From Nitrospirota bacterium (GTDB lineage: Bacteria > Nitrospirota > Nitrospiria > Nitrospirales > Nitrospiraceae): DNA of 64,000 bases. Positions 5,513 to 29,320 of the stretch are shown in pieces. Under the pieces are notes generated by a model. The model saw only the letters and a list, made by a program, of their open reading frames with translations. It was not told the origin of the DNA and searched no databases. The stretch lies in NCBI GenBank assembly GCA_963701855.1, contig CAVPBK010000011.1:64001-128000 (forward strand). The letters are read 5' to 3'. The translations under genes and the position numbers were made by a program. The number at the start of each line of letters is the position of its first letter. Position 1 is the stretch's first letter.

Positions 5513-5582
5513 ATGCTGGAGCGGGTGACGAAGACTACTTCACGTTATGATCGGGAAGCTGCCAGAACTGGGTACAGATACA
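5513..5582 (-). promoter_or_regulatory. Conserved upstream block of RTX genes, copy 2
   Basis: gactacttcacgttatgatcgggaagctgccagaactgggtacagataca, about 104 nt upstream of the ATG at 5429. Confidence 0.55.
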
Positions 5583-6066: not shown

Positions 6067-6204
6067 GCGAGACGGGCGGGGTTCGAGGTCCGAAGGTCGA
6101 GGTTTTCGGAACTTCGAACCTCGAACTTCAGATCGCGCTTTTCTCGCATCTCTCGCGCTTCACGCGCCACGGTCTGTGTCCCTGGCGGGTTGCTTCAACA
6201 TCCC
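6067..6204 (+). repeat. Modular intergenic repeat, family B, with 7-mer hairpin core
   Basis: Ends gcgagacgggcggg ... cgcgcttcacgcgccacggtctgt are shared with 36402-36505 and, reversed, 32690-32813; core ggttcgaggtccgaagg...cttcgaacctcgaac. Confidence 0.7.
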
Positions 6205-6207
6205 ATG

Positions 6208-7485: not shown

Positions 7486-8630
7486 CCACGTCGCCAGTCG
7501 TGACCTCCATCACGACGAAGTCGTTCCCCACACTCCCGTCGACGGTGTCTTCACCTGTGCCGCCCACCAAAAAGTCGTTCCCTGCGCCGCCATTCAGGGT
7601 ATCCGCATCCCCATTGCCGAACAACAAGTCGTTCCCGCCCAACCCGTTCAACGTTTCGTTCGTACTGGATCCGGCGATCAGATCTTGTTGGGCGCCGCCG
7701 GTATGGTTGGGGTCTGTGTTGAGCAGATACAACCCAGTCCCTGGTCCATACCCGGCAAACGATGCACCCCCCTCGAATCGGGACCCTCGACCTTGCTGCC
7801 CGTGTATTGGTCTACTATGGTCACTGAGCCCCCGAGTCCTGAGCCGACAAGATTATTCCCACTTTCTCGAAGTTCAGCCCGGGCAGGTCAGCGCGGTTCG
7901 CCACAATGACAATCGTGTCGGTCCCACCGCTCTCCGTGATCGTGTCGTTGCCTTCAAACACGTTGAAACGATACGTATCATCCCCCTCCCCGCCGTTGAG
8001 CGCGTTGCTGCCTGCTGGCCCCCCGTTGAGAATATCATTGCCCAAGCCGCCATTTATCGTGTCGTCGCCGAGCGAGCCGGTGAGGATATTGGCGCCGTCG
8101 CTCCCAGTGACGTTCACGGAACTGATGTAATTCAGCCCTGAGGCATCGAGGTTCTCAAAGCCATCCTGCACCAGCGGGTCCGCCACGCCGCCGATGGACA
8201 CCACCTGATCGGCCACCGACAGATCGACCTCCGTGACGCCGGTGGTGAGGAAATCTCCCCCACTGAGCACGAGCGTGTCGGTGCCCGTCCCGCCGTGGGC
8301 CTCATCCATGTCGCTGGTCGTGCCCTCCATGACAATGAAGTCATTCCCCACACTCCCGTCGACGGTGTCGTGACCTGTGCCGCCCACCAAGAAGTCGTTC
8401 CCCGCGCCGCCATTCAGGGTATCTGTATTCCCATTGCCGAACAACAAGTCGTTCCCGCCCAACCCATTCAACGTCTCGTTCGTATTGTCCCCGGCGATCA
8501 GATCTTGTTGGGCGCCGCCAATATCGTCGGGGTGTGTTGAGCAGATACGACGCCGTCCCTGCTCCATACCCGGCAAACGAGGCACCCCCCTCAATTCGGA
8601 GACTCTCGACCTTGCCGCCGGGCCCAGCAT
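7274..8630 (-). pseudogene. RTX paralog 3, frameshifted middle part (ORFs 7274..7732 and 7821..8630)
   Basis: Two copies of GGAQQDLIAG..NETLNGLGGNDLLFGNG; continuity with the flanking ORFs needs several frame changes. Confidence 0.8.
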
Positions 8631-10560
8631 ATTGGCCCACCATAGTCGTTGTGGTTCCGAGTAGCGAGGCGACCAGATCAGTTCCGGTTTGCTCGAAGTT
8701 CAGCCCGCGCAGGTCCACGCCGTTCGCCACAATAACACTCGTGTCGGTCCCACCGCTCTCCGTGATCGTGTCGTCGCCTCCACCCGGGAAGATCAGGTTG
8801 AGACGATACTTATTAATTCCCTTTTCCCCGCCGTTGAGCGCGTCGTTGCCCGCCCCCCCGTTGAGAATATCATTGCCGGCATTTCCCGTGAGCGTGTCAT
8901 TGCCACCGCCCCCGTTGAGGATATTGGCCGCGCTGTTGCCGGTGAGAAGATTGTCGCCGGCATCCCCGGTCGCGTTGATTGCTGCAACGCCGGTCAGCAC
9001 CACATTCTCAATCGCCGTAAAGGGCTCGACGTTCAGATCAACCGTGCGGTTAATCTGAATCGTGTCGGTGCCTTCATCGGCCTGCTCCCTGATGCCGTCG
9101 CCGAGGTTGTCAATCACGTACGTATCGTTGCCCAGCCCGCCGATCATGTAGTCGGCCCCGAGTCCCCCATCGAGCTGGTCGTCACCCGCGCGGCCTGTGA
9201 AGGTGTCGTTACCGGCCAGGCCAGAGAGTGCGTTGTTGCCGCTGTTGCCGGTGAGGATGTTATTGAGCGTGTTGCCGGTGCCGCTGCTGGCCGCTCCTGT
9301 GAGCGTCAGGTTCTCCAGGTTGGCCCCCAGTGTGTAGTTCAGCGTGGCCACCACCGTGTCGGTACCTGCATTGAGCCCCTCAGTGACCACCTCGCCCGCC
9401 CTCTCCACCATGTAAAGGTCATCGCCCCCGCCCCCGACCATGATGTCATTACCACCGGCCCCTCCATCAATGATGTCGTTGCCCTTCGAGCCGATGATGC
9501 TATTGTCGCCCGCGCTGCCGATGACGTTCACTGAACCGCCGATCCCCGAGGCATTGAGATTCTCGAAGTTGATCTGCGTAAGGGCAGCAGCCACGCCGCC
9601 GATCGAGACCACCTGGTCGGTCGACAAGGAGAGATCAACCACTGCCACCTGGTCGCCAGGGACTATCCCACTGAGCACAAGTGTGTCGTTGCCATCCTCG
9701 GCATCGATGGTGTCCACGTTGCCGCCCGTGACCAGCATGGAGATCCGGTCATCGCCTGCACCTCCGGTGACGGTATCCTGACCCAGGCCACCGAACAGTG
9801 TGTCATTGCCATCGCCACCGTTCAGCGTATCTGCGTTGGGTCCGTTAATGGTAATCGTATCGTTGCCGGCGCCGCCGAAGAAGGTCATCCCGGCGCTTGA
9901 GTTGTTGGTATAGGTGATGGTGTCATTGCCCAGCATCTGGTTACCGACGACAGAGAAAAGGTCGTTCGCCGTGGCGACCGAGTCGAGCGCGTCGTATGGC
10001 AGCGACAGTCCGCTCATCACGATCACGTTGGTTCCCGACAGGACCGAGATCTCGGTAACAGTTCCGCTAATATTGAAATTTGTGTCCGCGACTAAGCTGC
10101 CCTTGAAGGTCGCTGTGTCAGCGCCAAGTTTTTCCTGTAACTGGGTAATGCTCCCTGAGGCATTGCCGTTTGTATCGATCACGATGTGTCCGATGATCGT
10201 TCCTTGAAAGCCCGGGAAGCCGACCTTGAGGCTATGAATGAATCCACTGGCGTCGATATTAATTCTGCCAGTGAAACTGATAACGTCGCCGGTCGAGGGA
10301 TTGCGGAAGTTGAACGAATTGATGATCAGGTCATTCGCGCCGAACCCGGATCCACTGGCGGTTAGTATTCCCCCAGAATTCAGTGTTAGCGAAAGAAATG
10401 TCGAAGTGGGCGGCGAGTTAAAATGGAACAAGCCGGCATCAATTTCACTTGCCACCTGATCAAACCGACTGGAAAACTCGTCAAGGTCCTGTTGGATGTC
10501 GATGGGATCCAGGGCGACGTCCGACCAATCGATCGTGGATGAGCCAGTGATTTGTGCCAT
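8341..10560 (-). CDS. RTX paralog 3, N-terminal part; the full gene is probably 6208..10560
   Basis: Start MAQITGSSTIDWS parallels MALITGSSSIDWS of 1818..5429; AAGGAG RBS; RTX repeats; frame lost near 8530. Confidence 0.88.
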   Translation of the reverse strand: MAQITGSSTIDWSDVALDPIDIQQDLDEFSSRFDQVASEIDAGLFHFNSPPTSTFLSLTLNSGGILTASGSGFGANDLIINSFNFRNPSTGDVISFTGRINIDASGFIHSLKVGFPGFQGTIIGHIVIDTNGNASGSITQLQEKLGADTATFKGSLVADTNFNISGTVTEISVLSGTNVIVMSGLSLPYDALDSVATANDLFSVVGNQMLGNDTITYTNNSSAGMTFFGGAGNDTITINGPNADTLNGGDGNDTLFGGLGQDTVTGGAGDDRISMLVTGGNVDTIDAEDGNDTLVLSGIVPGDQVAVVDLSLSTDQVVSIGGVAAALTQINFENLNASGIGGSVNVIGSAGDNSIIGSKGNDIIDGGAGGNDIMVGGGGDDLYMVERAGEVVTEGLNAGTDTVVATLNYTLGANLENLTLTGAASSGTGNTLNNILTGNSGNNALSGLAGNDTFTGRAGDDQLDGGLGADYMIGGLGNDTYVIDNLGDGIREQADEGTDTIQINRTVDLNVEPFTAIENVVLTGVAAINATGDAGDNLLTGNSAANILNGGGGNDTLTGNAGNDILNGGAGNDALNGGEKGINKYRLNLIFPGGGDDTITESGGTDTSVIVANGVDLRGLNFEQTGTDLVASLLGTTTTMVGQYAGPGGKVESLRIEGGASFAGYGAGTASYLLNTPRRYWRRPTRSDRRGQYERDVEWVGRERLVVRQWEYRYPEWRRGERLLGGRHRSRHRRRECGE

Positions 10561-10690
10561 AACGCCTACTCCTTGTCGGTCTCAGGCCGTGAGGATGCTA
10601 CGCTTGAGCTACTTCAACAGATCCCCCTCGATAGTGGCACGCCGTGAAGACCCTAAATGGCTACGTCAGGTCCCCTATCAGCAACCATCT

Positions 10691-11235: not shown

Positions 11236-11258
11236 CCTGCTCCTTATGTTTATACCAG

Positions 11259-12036
11259 CTTGAGTTCTAACTCCAAGTACAACACTTCACGCCCGAATGG
11301 GCTACGGTGTTGCCATGCAAACGAGATCCTACAGACACCTGAGTGCCGAAGGACGTGAGACCTTGAGTCTGGGCCTGGCCCACGGCCAATCGCTCCTGAC
11401 GATGGCGACGGTGTTGGGACGGGCGCCCAGCACCCTGAGCCGCGAGTCGGCCCGCGACGCCACGAGTGGCCGCCCCTATCGGGCCTGCACGGCGCAGACG
11501 TTGGCGACTGGTCGGGCCCGTCAGCCGCGGCGGCGACGCAAACTCTTGGACCCCTGGCTGTGGCAGTATGTGAGGACCCATTTGGCTCAGGGCTGCTCGC
11601 CCGAACAGATTGCCGGGTGGCTCCGACGCTCGTATCCTGACGACATGCAGAAACAGCTCTCGGCCGAGACCATCTATGTGGGCCTGTATGTGCTGCCACG
11701 CGGCATGTTGCGGAGCGCACGGCTGGCGCCACTGCGTCAGGCGCGCAAGGCGCGTCGGCCTCGGGCGCGAGGAACGGATCGACGGGGCCACAGCCCCAAC
11801 ATGACGCCAATGGCCGAGCGCCTCGCCGAGGTGGCCACCGCACGGTGCCCGGCCACTGGGAAGGCGACCTGATCAAGGGGGCACGGATCTGTCGGGCTAC
11901 ACCCAGCGCGAGTTGAACGCCATTGCCCATCGGCTGAACACCCGCCCACGTCATTGTCTGAACTTTGCCACGCCGCTGGAAGTCTATGCGCACCTGCGCC
12001 CTCATGCACCCGTTGCACTTGGAACTTGAAACCGCC
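11259..12036 (+). mobile_element. IS30-family element, internally deleted (~780 bp)
   Basis: Imperfect IRs (ctccaagtacaac at left; gttgcacttggaacttgaaaccgcc at right); transposase HTH start YRHLSAEGR, SPEQIAG, ETIY, GHWEGDL, and C-terminal LNTRPR..L.FATPLE. Confidence 0.9.
11315..12029 (+). pseudogene. IS30 transposase pseudogene
   Basis: Frameshift near 11840; GHWEGDLIKG is fused directly to GTDLSGYTQRELN, so the catalytic core is absent. Confidence 0.88.
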
Positions 12037-12039
12037 CCT

Positions 12040-12616: not shown

Positions 12617-15600
12617 CTACTGCCAGCTCGCGGCCAAGACGGTCTGTACCTCCTGTGGCCGTTGATCGATCGCCTGATCCCACGTGAGGTTGGTTTGTAT
12701 GGAGAACCCGGCCATGGCCTGAATCAATTGATCAACTTGTGCGCTGAGCAGCGTTTGGCCATTGCCGGCCTGCAGCGTTTCGATCCGACTGCTCGTGCCG
12801 ACATACCAGTTCTGCACCGTGATCTGGTCGGACGAACCATGAATCTTGATGCGCAGATCGTTGGCCTGGCGGCTGATCACTAGATCCAGGGGATTGATCG
12901 TGGCTCCAAAGAGCGCTCGGTCTTGGTTTCCCGAGGACGAATCGACATCACAGATCCTGTCTTGGCCATCGCCTCGTGCGAAGTTGTAGAGATCGTTGCC
13001 AGACCCGCCCGTTAGCTGATCGTTGCCTGTACCGCCCGTAAATTGGTCAGCCCCACTGTCGCCAGTGAGCACATCGTTGCCCATTCCGCCGAGCAGCTGA
13101 TCCTCGCCCGATCCACCGTCGAGCGTATCTGTGCCGTCGCCGCCATTGAGCAGATCGTTCCCGCTGCCGGCGTTCAGTGAATCGTTGCCAAGTCCGCCTA
13201 GGAGCTGGTCGTCACCGCTGCCACCAAAGAGGCTGTCATTGCCATCGCCGCCATCCAGCATGTCGTTGCCTGAACCGCTATCGAGGCTGTTATTCCCGCT
13301 GTTGCCGATAAGGATATTGTTGGTCGAACTCCCTGTACCGTTGATGTTCGGCGTGCCCGTCAGGGTGAGGTTTTCCACGTTATTCCCCAATGTCCAGGTC
13401 ACCGAGCTTTGGACCGTATCGGTTCCGCCATTGAGATTCTCCACGACCGTGTCTCCAGCCCCAACGACATAAGTATCGTTGCCAGCGCCGCCAGTCAGCA
13501 CATTGGTCCCACGATTGCCTGTGAGGATGTTGTCCAACGCGTTGCCAGTCCCGTTCAGATTGGCCGTGCCGGTGAGGGTGAGATTTTCCATATTGGCGCC
13601 AAGGGTATAAGTGATGCTGCTCTGCACTGTATCTGTGCCTCCGTTGGCCAATTCGGTCACGACATCGCCGGCCAGGTTGACGACATAGGTGTCGTTGCCG
13701 ATCCCGCCAACCATGCTATCGTTGCCGGTCCCGCCGTCAAGTAGGTCGTTGCCGTCGCCTCCTTGCAACCTGTCATTAGCGGCCAACCCAAACAGCTGAT
13801 CGTTGCCGGCTCCACCCGTAAGCACATCACTTCCGGCAGTCCCCGTCAGAACCTGGTCTTGAATCGTCACGGTCAAGTCGAAGAGATCGGACACGCTCAG
13901 GCTCCCGGCATCGGTTGCGGTGACCTTGATATTCAGCAATCCTGCGTCTCCGCTGCTCGGTGTCCCGTTGAAAGTGCGGGTTGTACTGTTGAAGCTCAAC
14001 CAGGCCGGCAAGGCGCTGCCATTGGCCAAGGTGGCACTGTAGGTCAGCATGTCGCCCAGATCGACGTCAGCAAAAGTGTTCGTCGACACCGTGAAGGTGA
14101 AGGCCGCTCCTGTGGGTGCGGACCGGTCCACGATCGGATTCGCCACCGTGGGCGCATCGTTCACGTTTTGGACGGCCAGGGTGAAGCCGGTCGAGGCACT
14201 CAAGTTGCCTTGGTCGGTCACCGCCACCGTGAGGGCGAGTGTGCCGACGTGTGTATTGCCAGGCGTACCGCTGAACGTACGGGTGATCGAATCAAAACTG
14301 AGCCACGACGGGAGGAGCGCACCACCGGCGAGCGTGGCGCTGTACGTCAGCGCATCCCCAGTATCCACATCCGTAAAGGTGCCGGCCGGTACGACAAAGC
14401 TAAACTGCGCATCTTCCACTGCGGTTTGATTGGCCAACGGAACAGCTACCGTCGGCGCTTCATTTACATTCGTCACGGTGAGATGGAATACATCGGACGC
14501 ACTCAGGTTTTCGCGATCCCTCGCCGTCACACGCAGATCGAGCGCGCCGACCTGGGCGTCGTCAGGCGTGCCGCTGAAGGTGGCTGTCGTCGCATTGAAG
14601 TTCAGCCAGGCAGGCAACAAGGTACCGTCAGCCAGACTGGCGCTCAGCGCGAGCACATCGTCGACATCCTGATCGGCAAAGGTGCCGGCGGGTATCAACA
14701 CGCTGAACGGTGTATCCTCCTGGACTGTCTGATCTGCTAAGGGATTGACAAGGGACGGCGCATGGTTGACGGCGGTCGGAAACAGATCGGCTAGGTTCAT
14801 GGAACTTCCATCGGCAAAGGCCAGCGTTCCCACCACCAGCGAACCATTTGCCCCGGTCGGACCGAAGTTGTTCAGCCGTAGCTGGTCTGTTCCGCTGCTA
14901 CCGACTTGGATTGTGAGCGTCCGTGCAGCTTCATCGCGTGTGAACGTCAGATTGCTTTGAGCGATCCCCGCGCCAAAGAGAATACGATTGCCTTCCCCTC
15001 CACCTGCCACATCCTGAATCGTGTCGTTGCCGTCGCCCAGATTGAACACATAGGTGTCATTGCCCACACCACCAATCAGCAGGTCATCTCCTTGACCTCC
15101 TTCGAGCACATCCGCGCCAAGGCCGCTCTGAAGGGTATCGTTTCCGCCGAGCCCCTTGATGCGATCCGTCGCGCTGCTGCCAGTCAACACGTTGGGTTCG
15201 TTATTCCCTAAAATATCAAATCCCAGATCGATCAACTGTTGATACGTCAATGTCCGGTCGGTGAATTGGAACGTGCCAATGCCCGGATTCGCATACGCAT
15301 CATTCGGATCGAACCCTTCAATGTGGAGTTCGCCTCCCTCTGATCCATAGCGGATTAAGAGTGAGCCAAATCCCAAATTGGGATTGAAGGAGCTGTAGCC
15401 TCCTCCGAAGACAACCGTATTTGAAGCAGGTGCGCCTAGAGCGTGGACGGTATTACTGCTCGACCCTCCTGGGATCACAAGCGTATTCGAACCAGAGCCG
15501 AAAAAGATCAGGTTGTTGGCTGCCGATTGACTATAGAACGTGGTATGGCCGGTTCCCCCAATCAGTGTGTTGTTCCCCCCACCACCAATCAGGACACTGT

Positions 15601-18600
15601 TCCCTGCGCCACCATGTAGGGTATCGTTCCCGACTCCACCGATGAGCGTGTCATTACCAGGACCGGCAAAGAGATTCTGATCAACCCGGACAAGACTTGC
15701 GGCGTAATAATTGAAGAGGTCGAGGGTGAGGCCGTCGGCGAACGAGATAGTGCGGAGACCCGCTGGAGCATTGGCAACGTTGGGTAAAATGATTTGTTCA
15801 TCAGTCGCCTCAACTGAATCCAGTACGATATTTATGCGTTGGACCATGGTTGAGTACAAATCAACCGGGACGAAAGAAAGGTCTGATGGAGTGATCCCAG
15901 GCCCAAAGAGCAGACGATTGCTCTCTCCACTCTCGGCACGGTCACGGATCGTATCGTTGCCATCGCCCCGATTGAAGACATACACATCGATGCCGGCACC
16001 TCCATCTAAGAGATCGTCGCCGATTCCTCCAGTCAGTGTATCGTTGCCATATCCTCCGCCCAGCTCATCAACGCCGCTGCCTCCGTCTAATTGGTCATTG
16101 CCTGATCCTCCGAATAGCTGATCATCTCCCGCGTCTCCCTCTAGGTCGTCATGGCCTGATCCACCCAATAGCAGATCATTACCGCCTCCGCCTGTGACCA
16201 CATCATTCCCGCCTTTCCCGTTATATCGGTCAGGTCCATCAGTCCCGACGAACGTGTCGTTTCCGTCTGTCCCTCCAGGGAAATTCAGCAACTCGTCCAA
16301 GCTCAGATGAATGCCATTCGTAAAGGTGACGCTACCGATGACCGAAGATCCAGCCTGCCCTGTCGGATCATAGTTGGACAGCACAATAGCATCTCCGTTT
16401 GATCCAACTTGGAGAGTCAGGGAATTCGTTCCCTGTACCACCTCAAGATCCCCGAGATTCAGACCACTTCCGAACCGGATTTCATTCATGGCACCAGCCA
16501 CGGCTGTATCTACAATCGTGTCCGCCCCATCTCCACGATCATAGAAATAGATATCGTTGCGCGCACTACCAATCAACGTGTCATTACCCGCACCAGCATG
16601 AAACCGGTTCGAGGCATTTGTCCCGGTGACGACGTTGTTTTGATCCGTGGCGTAAACGTCAATGCCACGATCAATAAGCTGGCTATATGTCAGAGTCGTT
16701 TCAATGCCAAAGTTGTCAAAGGTAAATAGATCGATCGCATGGCGGCCATAGGCGTCATTGGGATCAAAGTTGGGGATGCGAAGCTCGTGCGTCTTTTCAA
16801 CAACCGAGGAATCATTGACCCCGCTAAATACGAGGGTCAAGGCATTCTCTTTCAAGGCCAAGGAGAGATGATCTGAATCGCTCGACAGATTTCCGGCCAC
16901 AACTCGATTCACATCTCCCGTCGAGGAATCGTCAAGGATAGTATCCACCCCTCTCCACTCCCCATAGATATAGGTGTCGTTTCCCGTTCCTCCGTCCAGA
17001 ATGTCGACAACAGATTCGTCAATGGTCGTCCCAAAACCTATTGCTGAGGTTCCGCCGTCGAGGGTGTCATCTCCAGCGCCACCGGTGATGACGTTGGCAT
17101 CGGAACTACCGCTAAGGAAATTATCAAGGGCATTCCCTGTGGCAGCGTGAGGTCCAGATATGATGAGATCTTCAACATTGTCTGGCAGAGTAAAGTCGAC
17201 AGAGCTATGGACAGTATCGTGGCCTTCGTCGGGCGCTTCCTCCACCACATCTCCGAGATCGTTTACACCATAAACATCGTCGCCGGCTAATCCAATGAGC
17301 TCATCGGGAAATCCGTTATACCCGGGCAAGTAATCCGCTCCACTGGTCCCCACCTGCCGGCTATCCCCGGCTTGATTGTGAATGGTAGTCGAGTCCCACA
17401 CCGTTCCATCGGCAAATTGCACTTGGAAGAAATGATTCACATAGAACGAGGGAAGCGTGAGGGTATCCAGGCCGCCACTAAGATTGAGCGTGATGGTTTG
17501 GTCAACACGCCCGACAATCACATCGCTGGGCAAGACACCAGCAGACATCTGAATGGTATAGGTTCCGCCCTGACTGGTGTCGATGATGTCTTGCCCGCTG
17601 CCAGCACCGAATGCATACGTGTAGGAGCCGGGTGCGCCAACGAACAGATCGTTCCCTGTTCCGCCATCGACAACATCGGTTCCGCCTTCGCCATACATGA
17701 CATCATCGCCCACGCCCCCAAAGAACTGATCGTTTCCGCTGCCGCCACGGAGTGTATCGTTCCCCTCACCGCCGACCAACGAATCATCGCCGGCGCCACC
17801 ACGCAGGAAGTCGTTGCCATCGCCACCCAGTACTGAATCGTTGCCATCTCCGGCATCGACAGAATCGTCTCCAGTGCCTGCGTCAATGGTATCGCCGCCG
17901 GCCTCCCCTTCAAGACTATCGTTCCCAGCATCGCCGTTTAGTACATCATTCCCATCGCCGCCCTGCATGATGTCGTCACCCGTCCCCCCGGACAACTGGT
18001 CGACGCCTCCGTTGCCAACGATCACATCATTGCCGCCGCCCCCATCGAGAACATTGTCGATGGCTCCTCCGGTGAGTGCATCGTTTCCATCCAGACCAAA
18101 AATCCCGCGGTAGATTTCACCGCCGTTCAACACATCATCGCCGGCTGTCCCCAGCAGATCGAATCCGCGTGCGATGAGCTCGGTATGGGTCAGTGTCGTG
18201 CCGTCGGCGAACTCGAATCGCTCGATGCCTGTCGGGACGGAGGGATTGGCCAGGTCGAATCCTTGAATGTGAATAGCATCGCCATTCGAGCCCACGCGTA
18301 TCAGCAACGACCCACTGCCGATACTGATATCCTGTTCCGTAATGCCGGCTCCGAACACCAGCCTGTCTCCCTCCCCTTCGGTATCCTGAATCGTTTCGAT
18401 CCCATCACCGAGGTTGAAGACATAGGTATCGGCGCCGGTGCCCCCGATCAATGTATCGATACCAACTCCACCGACCAGCACATCGTTTCCATCACCGCCA
18501 ACCAGTGTATCGAACCCATCTCCACCAAACAGAGTGTCGTTCCCTTCCTCTCCAAACAGCTGATCATCTTCGGTCCCGCCCCACAGCACATCGTCGTCCG

Positions 18601-19198
18601 AACCTCCGTATAGTTGATCGATGCCGCTCCCGCCATCCAGCACGTCCGTGCCCTCATTGCCTCGCAGGAGATCCTGATCGGCTCCGCCAAAGAGCACATC
18701 GTCGCCGCGTCCTCCAGCTAGTGTGTCGTTGCCAGTTCCGCCATCCAGCCAATCGTTTGCTCCAGTCGGATCGTCGAGGAAATCTCCGTATAGGGTGTCG
18801 TTGTCCGCCCCACCGATGAGCGTGTCTGCATTGCCTCCACCATACAGTCGGTCGTCGCCCGCTCCTCCATCCAGGAGATCCTTGCCGGCCTCGACCCCGT
18901 CAATCGTCTGATCATCTCCATAGAGCGTATCGTCCTCCGAGCCACCGAGCAGCACATCATCTCCCGCATCGCCTTGGAGATAGTCATCGCCTTCGCCGCC
19001 GTCGAGATAATCGGTCCCGCCTGTAACACTGTTGAATACTGTCCCCGGCAACGGCGTCACAATTCCAGGGTACTGGAGAAAGATGTAGGAATGCGTCGGA
19101 GGCTTGGTCGCCGTAGAGATGGTCTGCCCCGCTGCCACCAAAGAGCACGTCGTTGCCGCGCAGTCCGGCAAGCCAATCGTCCCCAGCTTCGCCGGCAA
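12617..19198 (-). CDS. Giant RTX protein, C-terminal part: RTX blocks, HCBP domains, three cadherin-like/He_PIG Ig repeats, T1SS signal region
   Basis: Many GGxGxD repeats; YxFxxGDGxDTI...F.FADGT units; three ~100-aa VNxAPTV...F.D.D..D.L.YSATLA.G..LP.WL.F...T.TF.GTP repeats at ~13860-14770. Confidence 0.92.
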   Translation of the reverse strand: MPAKLGTIGLPDCAATTCSLVAAGQTISTATKPPTHSYIFLQYPGIVTPLPGTVFNSVTGGTDYLDGGEGDDYLQGDAGDDVLLGGSEDDTLYGDDQTIDGVEAGKDLLDGGAGDDRLYGGGNADTLIGGADNDTLYGDFLDDPTGANDWLDGGTGNDTLAGGRGDDVLFGGADQDLLRGNEGTDVLDGGSGIDQLYGGSDDDVLWGGTEDDQLFGEEGNDTLFGGDGFDTLVGGDGNDVLVGGVGIDTLIGGTGADTYVFNLGDGIETIQDTEGEGDRLVFGAGITEQDISIGSGSLLIRVGSNGDAIHIQGFDLANPSVPTGIERFEFADGTTLTHTELIARGFDLLGTAGDDVLNGGEIYRGIFGLDGNDALTGGAIDNVLDGGGGNDVIVGNGGVDQLSGGTGDDIMQGGDGNDVLNGDAGNDSLEGEAGGDTIDAGTGDDSVDAGDGNDSVLGGDGNDFLRGGAGDDSLVGGEGNDTLRGGSGNDQFFGGVGDDVMYGEGGTDVVDGGTGNDLFVGAPGSYTYAFGAGSGQDIIDTSQGGTYTIQMSAGVLPSDVIVGRVDQTITLNLSGGLDTLTLPSFYVNHFFQVQFADGTVWDSTTIHNQAGDSRQVGTSGADYLPGYNGFPDELIGLAGDDVYGVNDLGDVVEEAPDEGHDTVHSSVDFTLPDNVEDLIISGPHAATGNALDNFLSGSSDANVITGGAGDDTLDGGTSAIGFGTTIDESVVDILDGGTGNDTYIYGEWRGVDTILDDSSTGDVNRVVAGNLSSDSDHLSLALKENALTLVFSGVNDSSVVEKTHELRIPNFDPNDAYGRHAIDLFTFDNFGIETTLTYSQLIDRGIDVYATDQNNVVTGTNASNRFHAGAGNDTLIGSARNDIYFYDRGDGADTIVDTAVAGAMNEIRFGSGLNLGDLEVVQGTNSLTLQVGSNGDAIVLSNYDPTGQAGSSVIGSVTFTNGIHLSLDELLNFPGGTDGNDTFVGTDGPDRYNGKGGNDVVTGGGGNDLLLGGSGHDDLEGDAGDDQLFGGSGNDQLDGGSGVDELGGGYGNDTLTGGIGDDLLDGGAGIDVYVFNRGDGNDTIRDRAESGESNRLLFGPGITPSDLSFVPVDLYSTMVQRINIVLDSVEATDEQIILPNVANAPAGLRTISFADGLTLDLFNYYAASLVRVDQNLFAGPGNDTLIGGVGNDTLHGGAGNSVLIGGGGNNTLIGGTGHTTFYSQSAANNLIFFGSGSNTLVIPGGSSSNTVHALGAPASNTVVFGGGYSSFNPNLGFGSLLIRYGSEGGELHIEGFDPNDAYANPGIGTFQFTDRTLTYQQLIDLGFDILGNNEPNVLTGSSATDRIKGLGGNDTLQSGLGADVLEGGQGDDLLIGGVGNDTYVFNLGDGNDTIQDVAGGGEGNRILFGAGIAQSNLTFTRDEAARTLTIQVGSSGTDQLRLNNFGPTGANGSLVVGTLAFADGSSMNLADLFPTAVNHAPSLVNPLADQTVQEDTPFSVLIPAGTFADQDVDDVLALSASLADGTLLPAWLNFNATTATFSGTPDDAQVGALDLRVTARDRENLSASDVFHLTVTNVNEAPTVAVPLANQTAVEDAQFSFVVPAGTFTDVDTGDALTYSATLAGGALLPSWLSFDSITRTFSGTPGNTHVGTLALTVAVTDQGNLSASTGFTLAVQNVNDAPTVANPIVDRSAPTGAAFTFTVSTNTFADVDLGDMLTYSATLANGSALPAWLSFNSTTRTFNGTPSSGDAGLLNIKVTATDAGSLSVSDLFDLTVTIQDQVLTGTAGSDVLTGGAGNDQLFGLAANDRLQGGDGNDLLDGGTGNDSMVGGIGNDTYVVNLAGDVVTELANGGTDTVQSSITYTLGANMENLTLTGTANLNGTGNALDNILTGNRGTNVLTGGAGNDTYVVGAGDTVVENLNGGTDTVQSSVTWTLGNNVENLTLTGTPNINGTGSSTNNILIGNSGNNSLDSGSGNDMLDGGDGNDSLFGGSGDDQLLGGLGNDSLNAGSGNDLLNGGDGTDTLDGGSGEDQLLGGMGNDVLTGDSGADQFTGGTGNDQLTGGSGNDLYNFARGDGQDRICDVDSSSGNQDRALFGATINPLDLVISRQANDLRIKIHGSSDQITVQNWYVGTSSRIETLQAGNGQTLLSAQVDQLIQAMAGFSIQTNLTWDQAIDQRPQEVQTVLAASWQ

Positions 19199-20609
19199 GA
19201 TAATCGTTTCCGATGGTAGTCGCCCCTAACTCAATCGATTCTCCCGAGAGGCTATCATTCCCAATCCCACCGAAAACCACATCGTCGCCCGAGCCGCCAT
19301 CGAGAAAATCGTTGCCGAGCCCGCCATATAGCACATCCTGCCCAAGGCCACCTTTTATCAAGTCAATGTCAGCCCCGCCGTCGACAACGTCATCCCCTTC
19401 AACGGCGAAAATGAGATCCCGCCCTGCTTCGCCATAGATCCGGTCATTCCCTTTTCCCCCGTGCAGTTCATCATGCCCGCCACCGCCAAAAATTTGGTGA
19501 TTGAAGAGCGCGCTGCTGACTTCGAGATCGAGAATATCGTTCCCGCCGAACCCGTGTACAATGTGATTGGCCGCCGCGGTAAAGAAGGGCGTGTTATCCG
19601 TCTCATCGCCGTCATAGGTCACCGTCGGTTGCCCATTCTCATAATTAATCACCGATGGGGTGGCATCGGGAAGCGCAGACAGATCCCGTAGCGTGATGTC
19701 GAGATCGCCCGGTTGCCAATCTTGAATGGTGACGTGCCCATTGATCGTGAGCGTGCTGCCACTTTGCACAAATGTATATTGACCATCCGAACTCTTGTAC
19801 GTGTTGGCCGCTTCACCCACGCGTCGGATACCACCGACCATCATCTGCCCATTGACCAATAGTCGGCCCTGGTCATCACCGTCTTCAATGGTATCGGTCC
19901 CATCGGCATTGAGCACATAGGTGTCGAAGCCCAGGCCTCCGTTCAACCGATCGCTCCCGGTGGTGCCGTCGAGCCAATCATTGCCACTGTCCCCTTGGAG
20001 ATAGTCATTCCCGCCATAGCCAAGAAGCTGATCGGTCCCCTCACCGCCATAGAGATGATCGTCGGTCAGATCATGCCCACCCAGCGTATCAGTATCGGCT
20101 CCCCCGAAGAGATACTCGCGTTGGAAAAGTGGAGCGATTACAGCGGATGATGGCACGTCAGATCCCGACGCGATATCTTGGTAATGGCTAATGGCCAATA
20201 GGTCGCTTGGGTATTGCTGATTGTTGATCGTGAGATCGAGTTTGGCGAGGAGAAAGGCCGCGCGATCCGTCAGGTACTGATCCGTCATATCGCCGAAGCC
20301 GGTCGCGGAATCATTGAGCGCCAGAACGCCATTCGCTGTATGGCCTAAGCCGACGTAATCGACGCCGATGATCGCAAAGGGGTTGAGCGCCCGCAGAGCA
20401 TACCGATAGGCAAGGCCACTATCTCCGGGATCTTGCGCGGCGGCTTTTAGCTCAGCCGCCGTGAGGCGTGGAACGACCTGCCCCTGGCTATCCACCTGCA
20501 CCAGTGGCTCAATGGAGAAGGTTTGATTCGCCGACAGCCGCTTGCACCTCTGCCAGATGCGTGTAAAACTCCGTGCGCGCACCGAGATCGCCAAACCCGC
20601 CGGTGTCAT
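18984..20609 (-). CDS. Giant lipase-RTX protein, middle fragment
   Basis: LAYRYAL..LNPF..G, YL.DRAAFL and then RTX repeats; joins neighbours via frameshifts near 20535 and 19075. Confidence 0.85.
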   Translation of the reverse strand: MTPAGLAISVRARSFTRIWQRCKRLSANQTFSIEPLVQVDSQGQVVPRLTAAELKAAAQDPGDSGLAYRYALRALNPFAIIGVDYVGLGHTANGVLALNDSATGFGDMTDQYLTDRAAFLLAKLDLTINNQQYPSDLLAISHYQDIASGSDVPSSAVIAPLFQREYLFGGADTDTLGGHDLTDDHLYGGEGTDQLLGYGGNDYLQGDSGNDWLDGTTGSDRLNGGLGFDTYVLNADGTDTIEDGDDQGRLLVNGQMMVGGIRRVGEAANTYKSSDGQYTFVQSGSTLTINGHVTIQDWQPGDLDITLRDLSALPDATPSVINYENGQPTVTYDGDETDNTPFFTAAANHIVHGFGGNDILDLEVSSALFNHQIFGGGGHDELHGGKGNDRIYGEAGRDLIFAVEGDDVVDGGADIDLIKGGLGQDVLYGGLGNDFLDGGSGDDVVFGGIGNDSLSGESIELGATTIGNDYLAGEAGDDWLAGLRGNDVLFGGSGADHLYGDQASDAFLHLSPVPWNCDAVAGDSIQQCYRRDRLSRRRRRR

Positions 20610-21835
20610 CGTTGAAGTCGGTCTTTTTGTCTGACCGCATTCGGCACAAAGAGCATCCGAAGCCCATCCAAGGCCCGCTCCAAGGTATCGCCCTCGGCCG
20701 TATGCTCTTCAACGGCGAGGGCCAACGTATCGGCCCGCGCCGCTGACGCGGCTTTGAAGATATTCTCAATATCCGTTTGTATCAAATCCTGGTCGAGGCT
20801 CTCATAGAGCACTTGCAGGGATAAGGAATCGACGAGCAAGGTAATACTGTGGGCGTTGCCATAGTCGCGAAAGGGGTTTGGGAGACCTTCTACAAGCGGC
20901 TGGCCTTCAATCAGCACAGCCTGTACCGGCCCATGTACGCCGGAATTGGCGACAAGCTGCACGTCGCCACCCGTGACACTGGACCCAAAGAATTGGGTGA
21001 TCTTTTGAAACGCCCCGTCGGTCCGCGTCACGCCTCCTGTCAATCCACCTGTTGGCAAACTGGCCGTCCCCGTCGTCTGAAACTGCCCCGCAACCTGAAT
21101 CACGGCCGGCTGATACCAGGACAGCGTTTGCACGTTGGCCGGTGACCCACTGCGTGTGAGATTACCCGCAGGGTCGAACTCCACAAACTTCGCGTCCATC
21201 GCGTCGATGAGCTGTTTGATACGGATCTCTTCCGTGAGCACCGGGGTCACGCCGCCAACCTGCCCTATACCTGCTCCATTAAAGATGTATGTGTGTTGAA
21301 TGTCGTTCGTGTGGAGTTCGGTAAAGACCGTTGCGAGATGCCCGCCAAGGGAATAACCCGTCACGTTGAGAATGGCGCCAGGCGGAAGTTTCAGCGGATT
21401 CGCTTTCAGCTCCTGATAGTACCGCTCCATACTCACCAATTGCCCTAAGGCAAACCCTCCTCCAGCGATCTCACCTGCCGCACCCCCTTGCCCATCCCGC
21501 TCATAGTCGCCACCCTGTGCTTGGTTCTGGTACTCCAAACTGCGGAAGGACAGGGTGTACGTGTTGGTCGTGGTATCTTTCAGCAGCGTGGCCGAAAATC
21601 CTGTGGCATCGTTGGCGTGGTGGTCGATGATGTCGTATTTCGTGATAAATCGGTCAGCAAGCACGTTGGTAAACCGGGTAGCTCCAAGAAGCGGTCCAGT
21701 AGGCGGATCAAAACCGAATCTGTTATTCCCTCGAGTCAATTGCGATTGGAGACCGCCAGGATCATTCAAGTAGCTCTCGGCAGCCATTTGCTGAAGCGCG
21801 AAGTCTAGCCAAGTAGAAATCTGTGACTGTGGCAT
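20606..21835 (-). CDS. Giant lipase-RTX protein, N-terminal alpha/beta-hydrolase (lipase class 3-like) domain
   Basis: Nucleophile elbow VTGYSLGGHLA, upstream LSFRSLE, downstream FNGAG, candidate His in NAHSI; no signal peptide; RBS GGGGGTG before the ATG at 21835. Confidence 0.85.
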   Translation of the reverse strand: MPQSQISTWLDFALQQMAAESYLNDPGGLQSQLTRGNNRFGFDPPTGPLLGATRFTNVLADRFITKYDIIDHHANDATGFSATLLKDTTTNTYTLSFRSLEYQNQAQGGDYERDGQGGAAGEIAGGGFALGQLVSMERYYQELKANPLKLPPGAILNVTGYSLGGHLATVFTELHTNDIQHTYIFNGAGIGQVGGVTPVLTEEIRIKQLIDAMDAKFVEFDPAGNLTRSGSPANVQTLSWYQPAVIQVAGQFQTTGTASLPTGGLTGGVTRTDGAFQKITQFFGSSVTGGDVQLVANSGVHGPVQAVLIEGQPLVEGLPNPFRDYGNAHSITLLVDSLSLQVLYESLDQDLIQTDIENIFKAASAARADTLALAVEEHTAEGDTLERALDGLRMLFVPNAVRQKDRLQR

Positions 21836-21847
21836 GGTGAGCACCCC

Positions 21848-22771
21848 CTACTTTTGCTCGGCGATCGGTCTCAAGATTTTTTGAATAAACTGCGAGGAGC
21901 TCAATGCTTTCTTGACAGGACATACCTGTCCCCCCAGCCACCAAATACCCGTGAGATTTCGTACGCCACCGCTGCGAATGAATCCACGGCGGACGCCTAG
22001 GACATCATTGGTTTGAAGATCCATTACTAATAGTTCTCCTCCCACAATTCCAAGCTCTCGATCATGCGGGCGTGGAATCCCTCTCCAAATGTAGCCATAC
22101 CGGCTTTTCAGCGAAAGCACACCTTCCGTTTTCACAATGTAGGGGACACGATGACTTCGTGTTCCATCCATGTAGACATAGTCTTTCTTACTTTCTTTCT
22201 CGGAGCCTCGAAAATACCGCACGTATGGCTGTGAAGAGTCCTTCTCATCCTTTGTGTGCGGTAATTCCATGAACTGGTACTGACCAAACGGCGGCTGCAC
22301 GAAATAGTCATGTGGATTGGGGTCATCAGTAGCATCATATGGGTCCTCCAACGCGTACAGATGCTCCAACTCATAATCTGACGCCTCTTTTCGCGGTCGC
22401 ATCATATAAATCCCTTCCACATTCTCCACCGTCTTGTAGATAAACTCCCCCGCTTCCGTCTTGCAGAGATGGTCGAAGTACTCCTGTGGCGTCATGCCCG
22501 GCTTGTAGCCACTGTCCTCCGGCACGGGGTTGGGAATCTTGATCGAATGCGCGAAGCGCCCTTCTTCCGTCGCCAGAGGATCGGCGGGCTTGAGCTTCAG
22601 GATGTCACACCGCCGATTGGCCGTATCGATCTTGTGCGTCGCGCAGTACTCGGCCTTCTTCTTCATCGCCTTCTCGAATCGCTCGCCAGGTGTCTCACCG
22701 TTCGCCACATTGACTTGACCAAGTAGCGTGAGTAGGCATCCGAGTACGAACAAACTGGCAATCTTATGCAT
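21848..22771 (-). CDS. Exported protein directly upstream of the lipase-RTX gene; candidate immunity or anchor protein
   Basis: Sec signal MHKIASLFVLGCLLTLLGQVNVANG; several Cys; motifs LCKTEAGEFIYKTVENVEG and LEDPY; 12-bp gap to the lipase gene. Confidence 0.8.
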   Translation of the reverse strand: MHKIASLFVLGCLLTLLGQVNVANGETPGERFEKAMKKKAEYCATHKIDTANRRCDILKLKPADPLATEEGRFAHSIKIPNPVPEDSGYKPGMTPQEYFDHLCKTEAGEFIYKTVENVEGIYMMRPRKEASDYELEHLYALEDPYDATDDPNPHDYFVQPPFGQYQFMELPHTKDEKDSSQPYVRYFRGSEKESKKDYVYMDGTRSHRVPYIVKTEGVLSLKSRYGYIWRGIPRPHDRELGIVGGELLVMDLQTNDVLGVRRGFIRSGGVRNLTGIWWLGGQVCPVKKALSSSQFIQKILRPIAEQK

Positions 22772-22815
22772 GGTCACCCCATCATCGAAATAGAAGTATT
22801 TCGGAACCAATACTG

Positions 22816-23223
22816 TCGGAACCTAAACGGTGTCAGGAACAGTTTTCTACGAGTACTTTCCGGGGACGGCCTTCATTGCGTATCGTGGAGACGAGACCGA
22901 ACCGCTCGATCGTCGCGGCCACCCATTCCAGTTCGCCGAATGGCTGACTGCGGACCACACTCTGCCGCAGACGCCTCAGCTCCTCTCCCGCTTCGTCCGC
23001 ATTCACCCAGCCCACCCAATCGGAACCTAAACGGTGTCAGGAACAGTTTTCCATGAGTACTTTCCGGGGACGGCCTTCATTGCGTATCGTGGAGACGAGA
23101 CCGAACCGCTCGATCGTCGCGGCCACCCATTTCAGTTCGCCGAATGGCTGACTGCGGACCACACTCTGCCGCAGACGCCTCAGCTCCTCTCCCGCTTCGT
23201 CCGCATTCACCCAGCCCACCCAA
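22816..23223. repeat. 204-bp tandem duplication of the transposase 3' end plus terminal repeat
   Basis: 22816-23019 and 23020-23223 are near-identical, with a few substitutions (ttctac/ttccat, cattcc/catttc). Confidence 0.95.
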
Positions 23224-23782
23224 TCAGTCGGTCGCGCGATTGGCCACTCACTCACCAAGGTGTGCTGCTGGGTGCCTCCGTTGGTCTTTCGCCACAGGCT
23301 ACTCCACTGCCACGCTTCCGCTCGCTCAACCAGTCCAGCTCGGAGTGCGTTGCGCTCCACGTAGCGACACACTGTCACCAGATGCTCGTCCGTCTGGACT
23401 ACGAAGGATTTGAACCGGCCTTGATAGAGATGTCCTGTTCCCACCGTCTGCCGATGGGTATGCCACCGCTGCGTATGGGTGAGCGTGAGCCAGTTCATAA
23501 ATCGCGACAGGTCGCCATCCTGTTGTGGCCAGACGACGAGATGCCAGTGGTTGGGCATGACACAGTAGGCCAACAGTCGCATCGACACGCGTTCACAGGC
23601 CTGCATCAAGACCCGTTCAAATGCACTAAAGTCGCCGTCGTCGTCGAACAGACGCTGTCGCCCATTCGCGCGATTCAGCACGTGATAGACCAGCCCGCCA
23701 GGTGCAACTCGTAAGGGGCGTCCCATTGTGATCGCTACGCCATCTTCCTTAGGCAGTTAGAAAACTGTTCCTGACACCGTTT
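23029..23782 (-). mobile_element. RAYT-type element bounded by 22-bp inverted repeats
   Basis: AAACGGTGTCAGGAACAGTTTT at 23029-23050 (and 22825-22846); exact reverse complement at 23761-23782. Confidence 0.85.
23037..23726 (-). CDS. REP-associated tyrosine transposase (Y1 HUH, IS200-like fold)
   Basis: YHVLNR, YCVMPNHWH (HUH), GHLYQGRFKS, YVERN (catalytic Tyr) and WQWSS motifs. Confidence 0.92.
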   Translation of the reverse strand: MGRPLRVAPGGLVYHVLNRANGRQRLFDDDGDFSAFERVLMQACERVSMRLLAYCVMPNHWHLVVWPQQDGDLSRFMNWLTLTHTQRWHTHRQTVGTGHLYQGRFKSFVVQTDEHLVTVCRYVERNALRAGLVERAEAWQWSSLWRKTNGGTQQHTLVSEWPIARPTDWVGWVNADEAGEELRRLRQSVVRSQPFGELKWVAATIERFGLVSTIRNEGRPRKVLMENCS

Positions 23783-23787
23783 CTTTG

Positions 23788-24813
23788 TCATTGGCCTCCT
23801 ATACACACATTCATGACCTGTACTCGATATCGTGGATCACGCAGATTGGGATCCCATGGATTCTTGATAAAAGCAAGCTTGCAGCCATCCGGGGAGACAA
23901 TGCCCCAGTCCACGACGTAAGGAAGAATCCTGGCAACGTTCTCCACCTGTATCTGATAGAGACCGGCCTTCCCGACATTCCCCAAACCAGGGTGGCTGCG
24001 GGAGATGAAATAAAGGCCCCCTTTTGTCAAAAGAAACTGCGTCCATCCAATTTGTGCCCAAGGCTTGCCGTCTGGGGAGAAAATCTGCTCTAGCTTGCCA
24101 CTCGGATGAAGCAACCAGAGGGGGGGAGCATCAGGCGTACTCCTATCACCACGAAGTAGATAGGCATCCATAAAAGGATAATATGTGATGCTGGGATTGA
24201 CATAGCGACTTTCCAAGCCCAGCGAGATCGGCTGTGTGGCATCAGTTCGATAATAGAGCATGGGCAACTTACTCCGACGGTCCTCCCCGTCGACCCCCCG
24301 ATCGATGTAACCATGCTCATCGAGCAGCGGAACCTTGGAGGTTGATGTGTGCCCATTAACAACCCAGAGAGGCGGGTGAGTTGTCGCAGGACGACAACTG
24401 ATCGGATGAATCCATACTCCCTCAGGAAGCGTGACTTCCTCTCCACCGACAAACGCCCGGCGTTTTGAGCTTTTCCCATCCGCCGAATAACGCACAACAT
24501 AGGACTTGGTATGGCCATTGATGCATTCCGGCGAAGCGTGTTCGAACCGTGGATCCTTTTCCACTGTGTCACGCTCGATATCCCAGACGTAGTAACCGTG
24601 GTTGAGCAACCGTATTTCCGTTCCAGGGCCAAACTCACGCCCTGTAAATCCGAGAAACAGCACGTGGGTATTGTCGAGCCAGTACGGCTGCCTATCATCT
24701 GCTGAGATGGCTGCTTCTTTAACAGGAAACGTCATGGCGGTCGCTCCCCAGGCACAGGACCACAAGTTGAGACAGCACACTCCGATTACGACGCGCATGG
24801 TCTGTAGTGTCAT
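23788..24813 (-). CDS. Exported hypothetical protein, possibly beta-propeller-like
   Basis: N-terminal hydrophobic signal-like segment; C-terminal VSPDGCKLAF TolB-like motif; GAGGA RBS; same strand as the lipase operon. Confidence 0.75.
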   Translation of the reverse strand: MTLQTMRVVIGVCCLNLWSCAWGATAMTFPVKEAAISADDRQPYWLDNTHVLFLGFTGREFGPGTEIRLLNHGYYVWDIERDTVEKDPRFEHASPECINGHTKSYVVRYSADGKSSKRRAFVGGEEVTLPEGVWIHPISCRPATTHPPLWVVNGHTSTSKVPLLDEHGYIDRGVDGEDRRSKLPMLYYRTDATQPISLGLESRYVNPSITYYPFMDAYLLRGDRSTPDAPPLWLLHPSGKLEQIFSPDGKPWAQIGWTQFLLTKGGLYFISRSHPGLGNVGKAGLYQIQVENVARILPYVVDWGIVSPDGCKLAFIKNPWDPNLRDPRYRVQVMNVCIGGQ

Positions 24814-29023: not shown

Positions 29024-29320
29024 ATGATGCCATCTGACCCAACAATGCTTGAGCGCTTTGCGCGAAAATACGTCTGGTGGACGACCGCGGATGTCGCGGT
29101 TACCATGCCGGAGCGCGTTGTGGCCCACGTCATGAACATTGGTGATTACGACGATGTGCAGACTCTGGCGACAGTCATGGGAGATGACTATCTCCGCGCG
29201 GTGTTGCAGCACGCGGAAATCGGTCAATTCACGCCCCGGTCATGGGCCTACTGGCATTACCGGCTTGGTTTGGCGGCGTCAAGCCATCTGCCTGCTATGC
29301 CCACACGGACATTCGCATGA
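29024..29320 (+). CDS. Putative antitoxin partner of the AbiEii nucleotidyltransferase
   Basis: ARKYVWW, VMNIGDYDD, SWAYWHYRL; ATGA overlap with the next gene. Start uncertain. Confidence 0.75.
   Translation: MMPSDPTMLERFARKYVWWTTADVAVTMPERVVAHVMNIGDYDDVQTLATVMGDDYLRAVLQHAEIGQFTPRSWAYWHYRLGLAASSHLPAMPTRTFA

Follow-up and report, generated by a model that had tools for sequence, protein, structure and literature searches.

A giant RTX lipase of a Nitrospirota bacterium and its upstream exported partner: a candidate exchangeable cassette for type I secretion

Why should a giant protein made of repeats-in-toxin (RTX) units carry a lipase at its very N-terminus, and a gene for a small exported protein just ahead of it? 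The question is raised by a locus in a 64,000-nucleotide stretch of DNA from a Nitrospirota bacterium (assembly GCA_963701855.1, contig CAVPBK010000011.1, positions 64,001 to 128,000), hereafter the window (G000:C11:64001-128000 in our numbering). The source genome, G000, is 4.3 Mb long, in 15 contigs, and 97% complete; the names carried by homologs point to Nitrospira or the Nitrospiraceae. The giant RTX gene lies on the minus strand at 12617..21835 (3,072 codons plus a stop, in four frames in the assembly), and the gene of its partner, a 307-aa exported protein of an unnamed family, is found upstream on the same strand at 21848..22771. We propose, giving this slightly less than an even chance, that the locus is an exchangeable cassette, composed of a lipase and its cognate periplasmic inhibitor (i.e. 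an immunity-like protein), mounted on a protein of the type I secretion system (T1SS).

A giant RTX gene headed by a lipase

The minus-strand open frames of the giant are 21847-20609 (about 412-413 aa), 20781-20512, 20708-18987 (574 aa) and 19225-12620 (2,202 aa). In three-frame translations, the protein sense switches frame near positions 20634 and 20529, and a third time between 19110 and 19030. Alignment with relatives backs the ATG at 21835 as the lipase start; from there to 12620, the gene measures 9,216 nt, and as the three indels sum to zero, this makes 3,072 codons. The first-pass annotation of the window had joined the four frames into a protein of ~3,070 codons, and relatives with the same N-terminal domain and domain order do have single open frames, of 2,097-3,621 aa.

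The breaks could mean that the giant gene is a true, very recent pseudogene in this genome, at a decaying locus expressing only the ~412-aa lipase ORF or nothing, a situation compatible with any of the functions discussed below. Three indels are indeed found within 1.55 kb, the extra bases at 20634 and 20529 lie outside homopolymer runs, and nearby RTX genes are broken too (6208-10581 in at least 3 pieces, 104-946, and L035 with its many short RTX ORFs). Contigs of the public metagenome runs X1, X2, X3 and X5 were therefore aligned to 18900-21900; no sequencing run contained more than 0.41 of the sampled words, and X3 and X5 had no coverage of the break sites. On the pieces covered, contigs of X1 (soil) were identical to the window, except for one base fewer at 20634 and at 20529. 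Those of X2 (freshwater sediment, from a separate study, ~98% alike) also had one base fewer at these two positions, and two extra bases, at 19086 and 19091, which puts them in frame across all three sites. These differences are exactly the three frame breaks, so that X1 and X2 contigs read through every break they cover. Moreover, each displaced segment is stop-free in its own frame, and the housekeeping genes of the window that were checked are full length, so that indels are concentrated in repeat-rich RTX DNA, where read-based polishing, we infer, often fails. A pseudogene thus appears unlikely. We read the frame breaks as indel errors that persisted in repeat-rich DNA and, judging from the sequence comparisons, the locus is one giant gene of the type I secretion kind, and not four ORFs.

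Four parts were distinguished in this gene, all on the minus strand. Residues 1 to ~410 (20606..21835) form a class-3-lipase-like alpha/beta-hydrolase domain, recognised by conservation and modelling. They are followed by a linker and long blocks of RTX nonapeptide and HCBP_related repeats (14771..20605; Pfam and NCBIfam), which hold all three frame breaks, then by three tandem He_PIG domains, of the cadherin-like immunoglobulin (Ig) type (13865..14770; Pfam He_PIG E 2.5e-58, 3 stretches), and finally by a C-terminal RTX block, the last HCBP_related unit and a tail presumed to be the T1SS signal (12617..13864; Pfam, NCBIfam and shared tail). On the whole giant, Pfam detected HemolysinCabind in 7 + 34 stretches (41), HCBP_related three times and He_PIG three times, and thereby recovered the RTX/HCBP blocks and the three cadherin-like Ig repeats of the first-pass annotation; NCBIfam gave partial RTX-type matches only. 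The same annotation had taken the protein for a single RTX/Ig giant of the T1SS type. This holds as well, with a weak match to RTX_C (E 5.6e-4, under the Pfam cut-off), a tail of ~60 residues ('...QVDQLIQAMA...SWQ') common to the RTX paralogs of the window at 1818-5456 and 6208-7509, and a complete T1SS operon on the same strand, 22 kb past the 3' end of the giant gene (C11:49396-54431). The operon codes for a C39-domain ABC transporter of 731 aa, a HlyD-type adaptor of 463 aa (scoring over the TIGR01843 cut-off) and a TolC-like outer membrane efflux protein of 456 aa, and presumably exports the giant.

The nucleophile motif of the N-terminal domain is GYSLGG, with Ser162 at 21350-21352; Asp291 lies at 20963-20965 and His329 at 20849-20851. 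None of these residues varies in an alignment of 26 sequences whose identity falls as low as 37%, and the same is true of His166, Asp336 and a GGDxxRD motif. The order of the residues, rather than the geometry of a model, suggests that Ser162, Asp291 and His329 are the catalytic triad. A model computed from the 26-sequence alignment had a pLDDT of 79.6 and a pTM of 0.85. Foldseek related it to fungal lipases with a probability of 1.00, and realignment of the Foldseek candidates with VIA gave Z values of 11.2-14.4 for 34 entries, which are class-3-type lipases, phospholipases A1 (PLA1) and feruloyl esterases, the next entries being at 5.6 or less. The list includes plant PLA1 7x0d (Z 14.4), fungal lipases (Z ~13-14) and the lipase effector 9cys_A of the Enterobacter cloacae type VI secretion system (T6SS; Z 12.9); the longest alignments were to T1SS lipases of family I.3 (2zj7, Z 13.4 over 256 residues; 2z8x, Z 11.2 over 261 residues). 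By this modelling, residues 1-410 adopt a class-3 lipase fold with a conserved triad, which gives substance to the GYSLGG hydrolase spotted at first.

At the sequence level, no Pfam family, PF01764 (Lipase_3) included, matched the ~412-aa lipase ORF at E <= 0.01. The domain has 1,150 relatives among 1.84 billion representatives, 242 of them at E <= 1e-30; in the best 150 of the 1,150, which are up to 4,861 aa long, the match begins no later than residue ~175. Their database names are only 'calcium-binding protein', 'RTX toxin-like' or 'hypothetical'.

A linked exported partner and its predicted binding

The stop codon of the partner gene (21848-21850) is separated by 12 nt from the lipase ATG, and the Sec-exported, Cys-containing protein of 307 aa is located as it had been annotated. 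The protein has no Pfam or NCBIfam match, and none of its 1,303 homologs is named. Among solved structures, a PDB profile search returned no chain at E <= 1, Foldseek gave a best E of 0.05, and a wide exhaustive VIA alignment gave a best Z of 4.7 with no FrpD entry listed; in the ESM Atlas, only unnamed clusters were hit. The partner is a new family, without named relatives, Pfam match or solved fold. All 31 aligned partners start with a hydrophobic export segment, and 13 of the 31 have a lipobox just ahead of the conserved mature start. In the window partner, the Cys lies within the hydrophobic core, and cleavage by signal peptidase I is predicted to be as likely as cleavage by signal peptidase II. 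Residues 26-145 are 67-88% identical across genera, and within them residues ~55-125 are nearly invariant, yet modelled without secondary structure.

Linkage of the two genes was quantified in two collections. In a family sample of 121 genomes, 31 with the partner and 41 with the lipase domain, 29 of the 31 partner genomes, or 28 of 30 without the unpublished G006, had a lipase match (full length or 5' fragment) next to the partner, downstream and on its strand, with a gap of 7-215 nt between matched segments. A GTDB sample with one genome per species, which overlaps the family sample and is not independent of it, contained 75 partner loci, some of them in Burkholderiales and Betaproteobacteria bins. 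The lipase domain followed the partner immediately in 62 of these 75 loci, and in 62 of the 69 where 300 nt or more were available; measured from the end of the partner frame, the lipase match lay most often at an offset of -10 nt. The exceptions among the 69 roomy loci are L088, disrupted by an insertion sequence; L091, a second copy in G096 that is followed by a gene of the 341-aa type described below; L106, L116 and L117, lone partners in proteobacterial metagenome-assembled genomes (MAGs); L080, where a transposase gene follows, 0.7 kb before the contig end; and L119, with only 377 nt of room. Linkage of the upstream gene with the lipase, the absence of which the first-pass annotation would have counted against its proposal, is thus conserved. 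It had also asked whether homologs of 21848..22771 neighbour lipases of T6SS or type IV secretion systems; the neighbours are RTX lipases instead.

So strict a co-occurrence, with genes that overlap or nearly abut and hence suggest co-translation, could also betray a secretion or folding helper. Lif is the foldase of family I.1 and I.2 lipases, and the partner might be a lipase-specific foldase or activator of this sort, or activate its lipase in the way E. cloacae Tli does; the giant would then be a nutrient-scavenging or matrix-remodelling lipase, and not a weapon. The specific binding predicted below would suit such a helper, and E. cloacae Tli both neutralises and activates its lipase, as stated in the relevant passages of PMC11470151. 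We nevertheless hold this to be very unlikely. The partner is Sec-exported, and the T1SS substrate leaves the cytoplasm, which makes an encounter before export improbable unless an internal start is used. In the section of PMC3034196 on T1SS lipases, those of family I.3 are free enzymes of 476-617 aa that need no extra gene product. The partner has no match to Pfam Lipase_chap, nor to any Pfam family, and the orphan partners described in the next section would be left unaccounted for.

Modelling of the complex between the 307-aa protein and the lipase, suggested at first as a check, gave a median ipSAE of 0.81 (0.77, 0.82 and 0.81), whereas each of the three controls scored 0.00; the partner had a pLDDT of 81 or more, and the runs shared 50% or more of their contacts. 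When the assay was calibrated, 116 of 157 solved complexes came up to its mark, as did 2 of 215 mismatched pairs; for the present complex these counts hold only roughly, because its own alignments were used. As the partner has no solved relative, its pass is unlikely to be recall. The confident part of the predicted interface joins lipase residues 23-42, 51, 64, 68-72 and 229 to partner residues 148-162, 197-208 and 277-291. According to the model, variable segments of the partner are therefore predicted to bind specifically to the lipase tip (residues 1 to ~75).

An interface at the extreme N-terminus, away from the triad, also fits a tether resembling FrpD. In that case, the upstream (lipo)protein, in the outer membrane or periplasm, would hold the N-terminal domain, which is the last to leave the T1SS, and would be an anchor and not an inhibitor, the giant being kept on the cell surface as an adhesin or a surface-displayed lipase. 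Tethering was the alternative named by the first-pass annotation, and we keep it as a serious rival, if a somewhat unlikely one. In Neisseria meningitidis, frpD lies immediately upstream of frpC, and the FrpD lipoprotein binds FrpC residues 1-414 with very high affinity, according to the passages of PMC3034196 devoted to this pair. The window shares this gene order, with a (lipo)protein gene upstream of an RTX gene, and the N-terminal binding is here predicted. Other features agree with a tether: the lipobox in 13 of the 31 partners, the adhesin-like architecture of RTX and Ig-like repeats, and the location of the most conserved stretch of the partner outside the predicted interface, where it could bind a conserved envelope component. 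LapG (Peptidase_C93, PF06035), the release protease of retained adhesins of the LapA type, had no match in G000 at its 97% completeness, while the Caulobacter control was positive. On the other hand, invariance of the triad and nucleophile elbow argues for a domain retained for catalysis, and not as a plug alone. The N-terminus of the giant is here a lipase, the partner has no likeness to any solved chain, and no resemblance to FrpD was seen in sequence or fold. A sequence search for a self-processing module after the lipase matched this segment only to RTX-repeat regions of solved chains.

Matched classes, a mosaic pair and displaced cassettes

The interface segments coincide with the indel-rich, variable parts of both the partner and the lipase alignments. 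Three interface classes were distinguished, and they matched in 19 of 19 adjacent pairs, 16 full and 3 displaced; more than one class can occur in one genus. In the window pair, the degree of relatedness to other pairs changes along the sequence. Partner residues 146-215 are 77% identical to those of G083/G093, 31% to G110 and 10-34% to other sequences, and residues 275-307 are 73%, 34% and 18-34% identical, respectively. Likewise, lipase residues 1-75 share 73-95% identity with G083/G093, 31-77% with G110/P0121 and 20-86% with other sequences. For lipase residues 76-400, the values become 26-63% with G083/G093, 64-94% with G110/P0121 and 12-79% with the others. In partner residues 26-145, identity is 76-78% with G083/G093, highest (88%) with G110, and 67-84% with other sequences. 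P0121 is a lipase sequence only, so that partner segments were compared with G110 alone. These values are suggestive of a mosaic pair, in which a class-A tract resembles G083/G093 and lipase residues 76-400 resemble G110/P0121.

Displaced copies were found in several genomes. In G083, a class-C partner, a 235-aa fragment of class-C lipase and a transposase fragment stand upstream of the full class-A pair; in G052, a class-B partner and a 100-aa lipase fragment stand upstream of a giant with another type of lipase, lipN2; and in G096, a frameshifted class-B partner and a fragment are followed by a class-C partner, then by a 341-type gene and its giant. The lipN2 class (GHSLGG, ~310 aa) heads giants in nine further loci and, where checked, is preceded by a membrane-anchored ORF of ~185 aa, distantly homologous to the partner (hhalign 97.3%, E 2e-11).

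The window itself carries a second exported protein gene, of 341 aa, further upstream at 23788..24813 on the minus strand. Its product has a hydrophobic N-terminal segment and no Pfam or NCBIfam match, and its homologs are present in only 7 of the 121 genomes. In four of them (G096, G101, G061 and G100), the homolog lies directly upstream of a giant of 2,461-3,424 aa, the N-domain of which has matches to Pfam Lipase_3 and Mbeg1-like, above the cut-off in the G100 protein. More generally, the lipN2 and 341-linked N-domains match Lipase_3 weakly, with one match above the cut-off in L046 (30.1 bits vs 22). Homology between the 341-aa and 307-aa families was considered and rejected (hhalign probability 4.5%). 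Two N-domain protein queries did not find the Lipase_3/Mbeg1-like N-domain in G000, while the control retrieved it in 3 of 3 other carriers; the 341-aa gene is consequently an orphan here, as its lipase class was not found in the genome. Its frame is intact and has all 26 positions conserved in the family alignment, an alignment in which it is itself included. The exported protein noted at first beyond the transposase insertion is therefore real, and so is the insertion, but it is the partner of a different lipase-RTX class, and not of the window lipase.

An anchor would hardly account for intact partners that occur alone, with no giant, or for the arrays of displaced partners and lipase fragments; it also accounts poorly for the way in which unrelated partner families follow different lipase classes. 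We count two of these observations in favour of a lipase and inhibitor cassette: the unrelated or distant exported partners upstream of other lipase classes (lipN2 and Lipase_3-like), and the lone partners (the 341-aa protein here, and those of L106, L116 and L117).

Two further arrangements were observed elsewhere. In L017 (G096:C6:69934-71225), a second gene of the 341 family is followed by a 151-aa fragment of a Lipase_3-like N-domain, i.e. a displaced cassette of the other class. In L118, from a MAG labelled Bordetella sp., positions 2489-4858 hold a partner homolog, a 283-aa membrane protein and a 112-aa 5' fragment of lipase; the membrane protein shows, by eye, a motif like the conserved Cys-containing 'IYKT' stretch of the partner. 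This locus may be a stacked array of partner variants.

The transposase gene that lies between the two partner-type genes of the window (23037..23726, minus strand, 229 aa) codes for a RAYT, or REP-associated tyrosine transposase, REP being repetitive extragenic palindromes (Pfam Y1_Tnp E 1.9e-17). Against NCBIfam REP_Tyr_transpos, it scores E 1.4e-20 and 73.6 bits, just below the 80-bit cut-off. A tandem duplication of 204 nt, 99% identical and to which no strand applies (22816..23223), covers the RAYT 3' end and repeats it with its stop codon, so that the spacer between RAYT and partner consists wholly of copied RAYT coding sequence. Of the REP hairpins that might flank the gene, only one weak inverted repeat was seen. 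RAYT genes or fragments also stand beside the partner or a 341-aa-type gene in L005, L015, L016, L044 and L080, and the transposase fragment of G083 is likewise a RAYT fragment.

Downstream of the giant, an array of RTX genes on the same strand occupies window positions 104-10581 and G000:C11:54860-63860 (L035:10860-19857), between the giant and the T1SS operon. It comprises an intact gene at 1818-5456 (1,212 aa), a paralog in at least 3 frames (6208-7509, 7821-8699 and 8341-10581) and many RTX fragments of 150-350 aa; the N-termini (MAxITGSSxIDWS...) are not those of lipases. An ORF between the 3' end of the giant gene and the next RTX gene (11250-12038, 262 aa) is probably not a gene, having a GC content of ~0.64, a bias to Arg, Pro and Gly, and no family match; plus-strand ORFs overlapping the giant gene were taken as non-coding shadows. 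Just past the TolC-like gene, an ORF with a LAGLIDADG_3 domain is found on the opposite strand (L035:4291-5310, G000:C11:48291-49310). Elsewhere in the window are an ORF for an AbiEii-type nucleotidyltransferase toxin (29188-30006) and one for the HsdM methylase of a type I restriction-modification system (60110-61708).

Inhibitor or anchor, and the relation to known systems

How, then, would the locus work? The upstream exported protein, which is a lipoprotein in many relatives, would clamp the first ~75 residues of the lipase. As a periplasmic inhibitor of a membrane-attacking enzyme, it would protect the producer and its kin. We infer this inhibition, as well as an antibacterial use and a route of the lipase into the target periplasm. 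Partner and lipase tip would recombine between strains as one specificity cassette, diversifying under between-strain conflict, while older partners and 5' lipase remnants would stay upstream, in a mirror image of the displacement of C-terminal toxin and immunity genes at contact-dependent inhibition (CDI) and Rhs loci. Orphan partners would persist as protection, and the 341-aa gene would be an orphan immunity gene, kept from, or against, another lipase class.

Among known enzymes, the closest in design are the family I.3 RTX lipases of Pseudomonas and Serratia (PML, LipA and TliA), which are also T1SS substrates and have the same succession of N-terminal lipase, RTX beta-roll and C-terminal signal. 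Unlike them, the window giant has 3,072 aa, Ig-like domains and an upstream exported partner, and no sequence-level match was found between its N-domain and these lipases. The giant would work like a family I.3 lipase enlarged into a surface giant, and is not a member of the family because of its size and accessory gene.

A second comparison is with the T6SS pair Tle/Tli of E. cloacae (PDB 9CYS). The structural neighbours given for it in the fold comparison of PMC11470151 are plant PLA1 and fungal class-3 lipases, so that the fold neighbourhood is shared with the window lipase, as are the GxSxG nucleophile and an adjacent exported protein that binds off the triad (here by prediction). In contrast to Tle, the window lipase heads an RTX body of the T1SS kind, and its partner is encoded upstream and unrelated to the ankyrin-repeat Tli. 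A scan of 49 ORFs, from the window and the preceding 20 kb, gave no match to T6SS families.

The serralysins and their inhibitor Inh/AprI offer another parallel, as a T1SS hydrolase beside a Sec-exported protein that could neutralise stray enzyme in the periplasm. The operons aprX-inh-aprDEF and prtA-inh-tliDEF, as presented in the operon descriptions of PMC3034196, combine a T1SS protease with Inh. The enzyme class differs, and no homology of the partner was seen (no Pfam match). No polymorphism or orphan cassettes are known for Inh systems.

With CDI and Rhs systems, the locus has in common a cassette of variable tip and cognate protein, displacement, orphan modules, lone immunity-like genes and nearby mobile elements. 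It is inverted with respect to them, the variable tip being N-terminal and the partner upstream, an order that a C-terminal T1SS signal would impose. In the sections of the 2012 survey PMC3482391 that deal with architecture and delivery, polymorphic toxins have a variable C-terminal toxin with immunity encoded downstream, and T1SS is mentioned only for classical RTX toxins. The polymorphic toxin-like system of the first-pass annotation thus stands as regards matched classes, mosaic recombination, displaced copies and lone partners, and departs from the described type in having its variable domain at the N-terminus and its partner upstream.

Several points weigh against an inhibitor cassette. 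T1SS substrates normally bypass the periplasm, and we know of no route by which such a substrate would enter the periplasm of a neighbour. The giant gene is out of frame in the present assembly. The partner is unusually conserved for an immunity protein, and this conservation, as read from the alignment, hints at a second, conserved binding target; lying outside the interface, it fits an FrpD-like tether, as does the missing route into the periplasm. The predicted interface contains no catalytic residue, nor the presumed lid region (~100-128), so that inhibition is deduced rather than visible in the model, which leaves the tether in play. This last point is not decisive, as the E. cloacae Tli lipoprotein neutralises a structurally similar lipase by sequestering its lid, with the triad left exposed (account of the complex in PMC11470151). 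Finally, the matched classes and the mosaic tract occupy one uninterrupted piece of DNA, and simple co-inheritance or a single conversion event could yield both.

As a tentative generalisation of the inhibitor cassette, to which we give well under an even chance, Nitrospira and some Beta- and Gammaproteobacteria would deploy polymorphic toxins through T1SS, in a system mirroring CDI and Rhs, with exchangeable N-terminal lipases, upstream immunity, displaced 5' cassettes and protective orphans. As the secretion signal takes up the C-terminus, the exchangeable toxin, drawn from several class-3 lipase classes, would sit at the N-terminal end of a giant RTX/Ig stalk. In the full-text literature searched, no account was found of RTX giants that have an exchangeable lipase tip at the N-terminus and a cognate protein encoded upstream. 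T1SS is not known as a delivery route of polymorphic effector and immunity systems.

Whichever reading is right, the locus offers two proteins that can be tested directly, with contact residues predicted and specificity classes available from nature. Should the partner prove to be a tether, the long-unexplained pairing of FrpD and FrpC would gain a widespread and enzymatically defined counterpart. Should the pair prove to be a toxin and its immunity protein, bacterial warfare would be seen to have a further secretion route and a new immunity fold. Nitrospira are key nitrite oxidisers of soils and wastewater plants; a toxin and immunity pair would point to strain-level competition among them, and the generalised system, if true, would be a kin-discriminating weapon for slow-growing nitrifiers inside biofilms and flocs.

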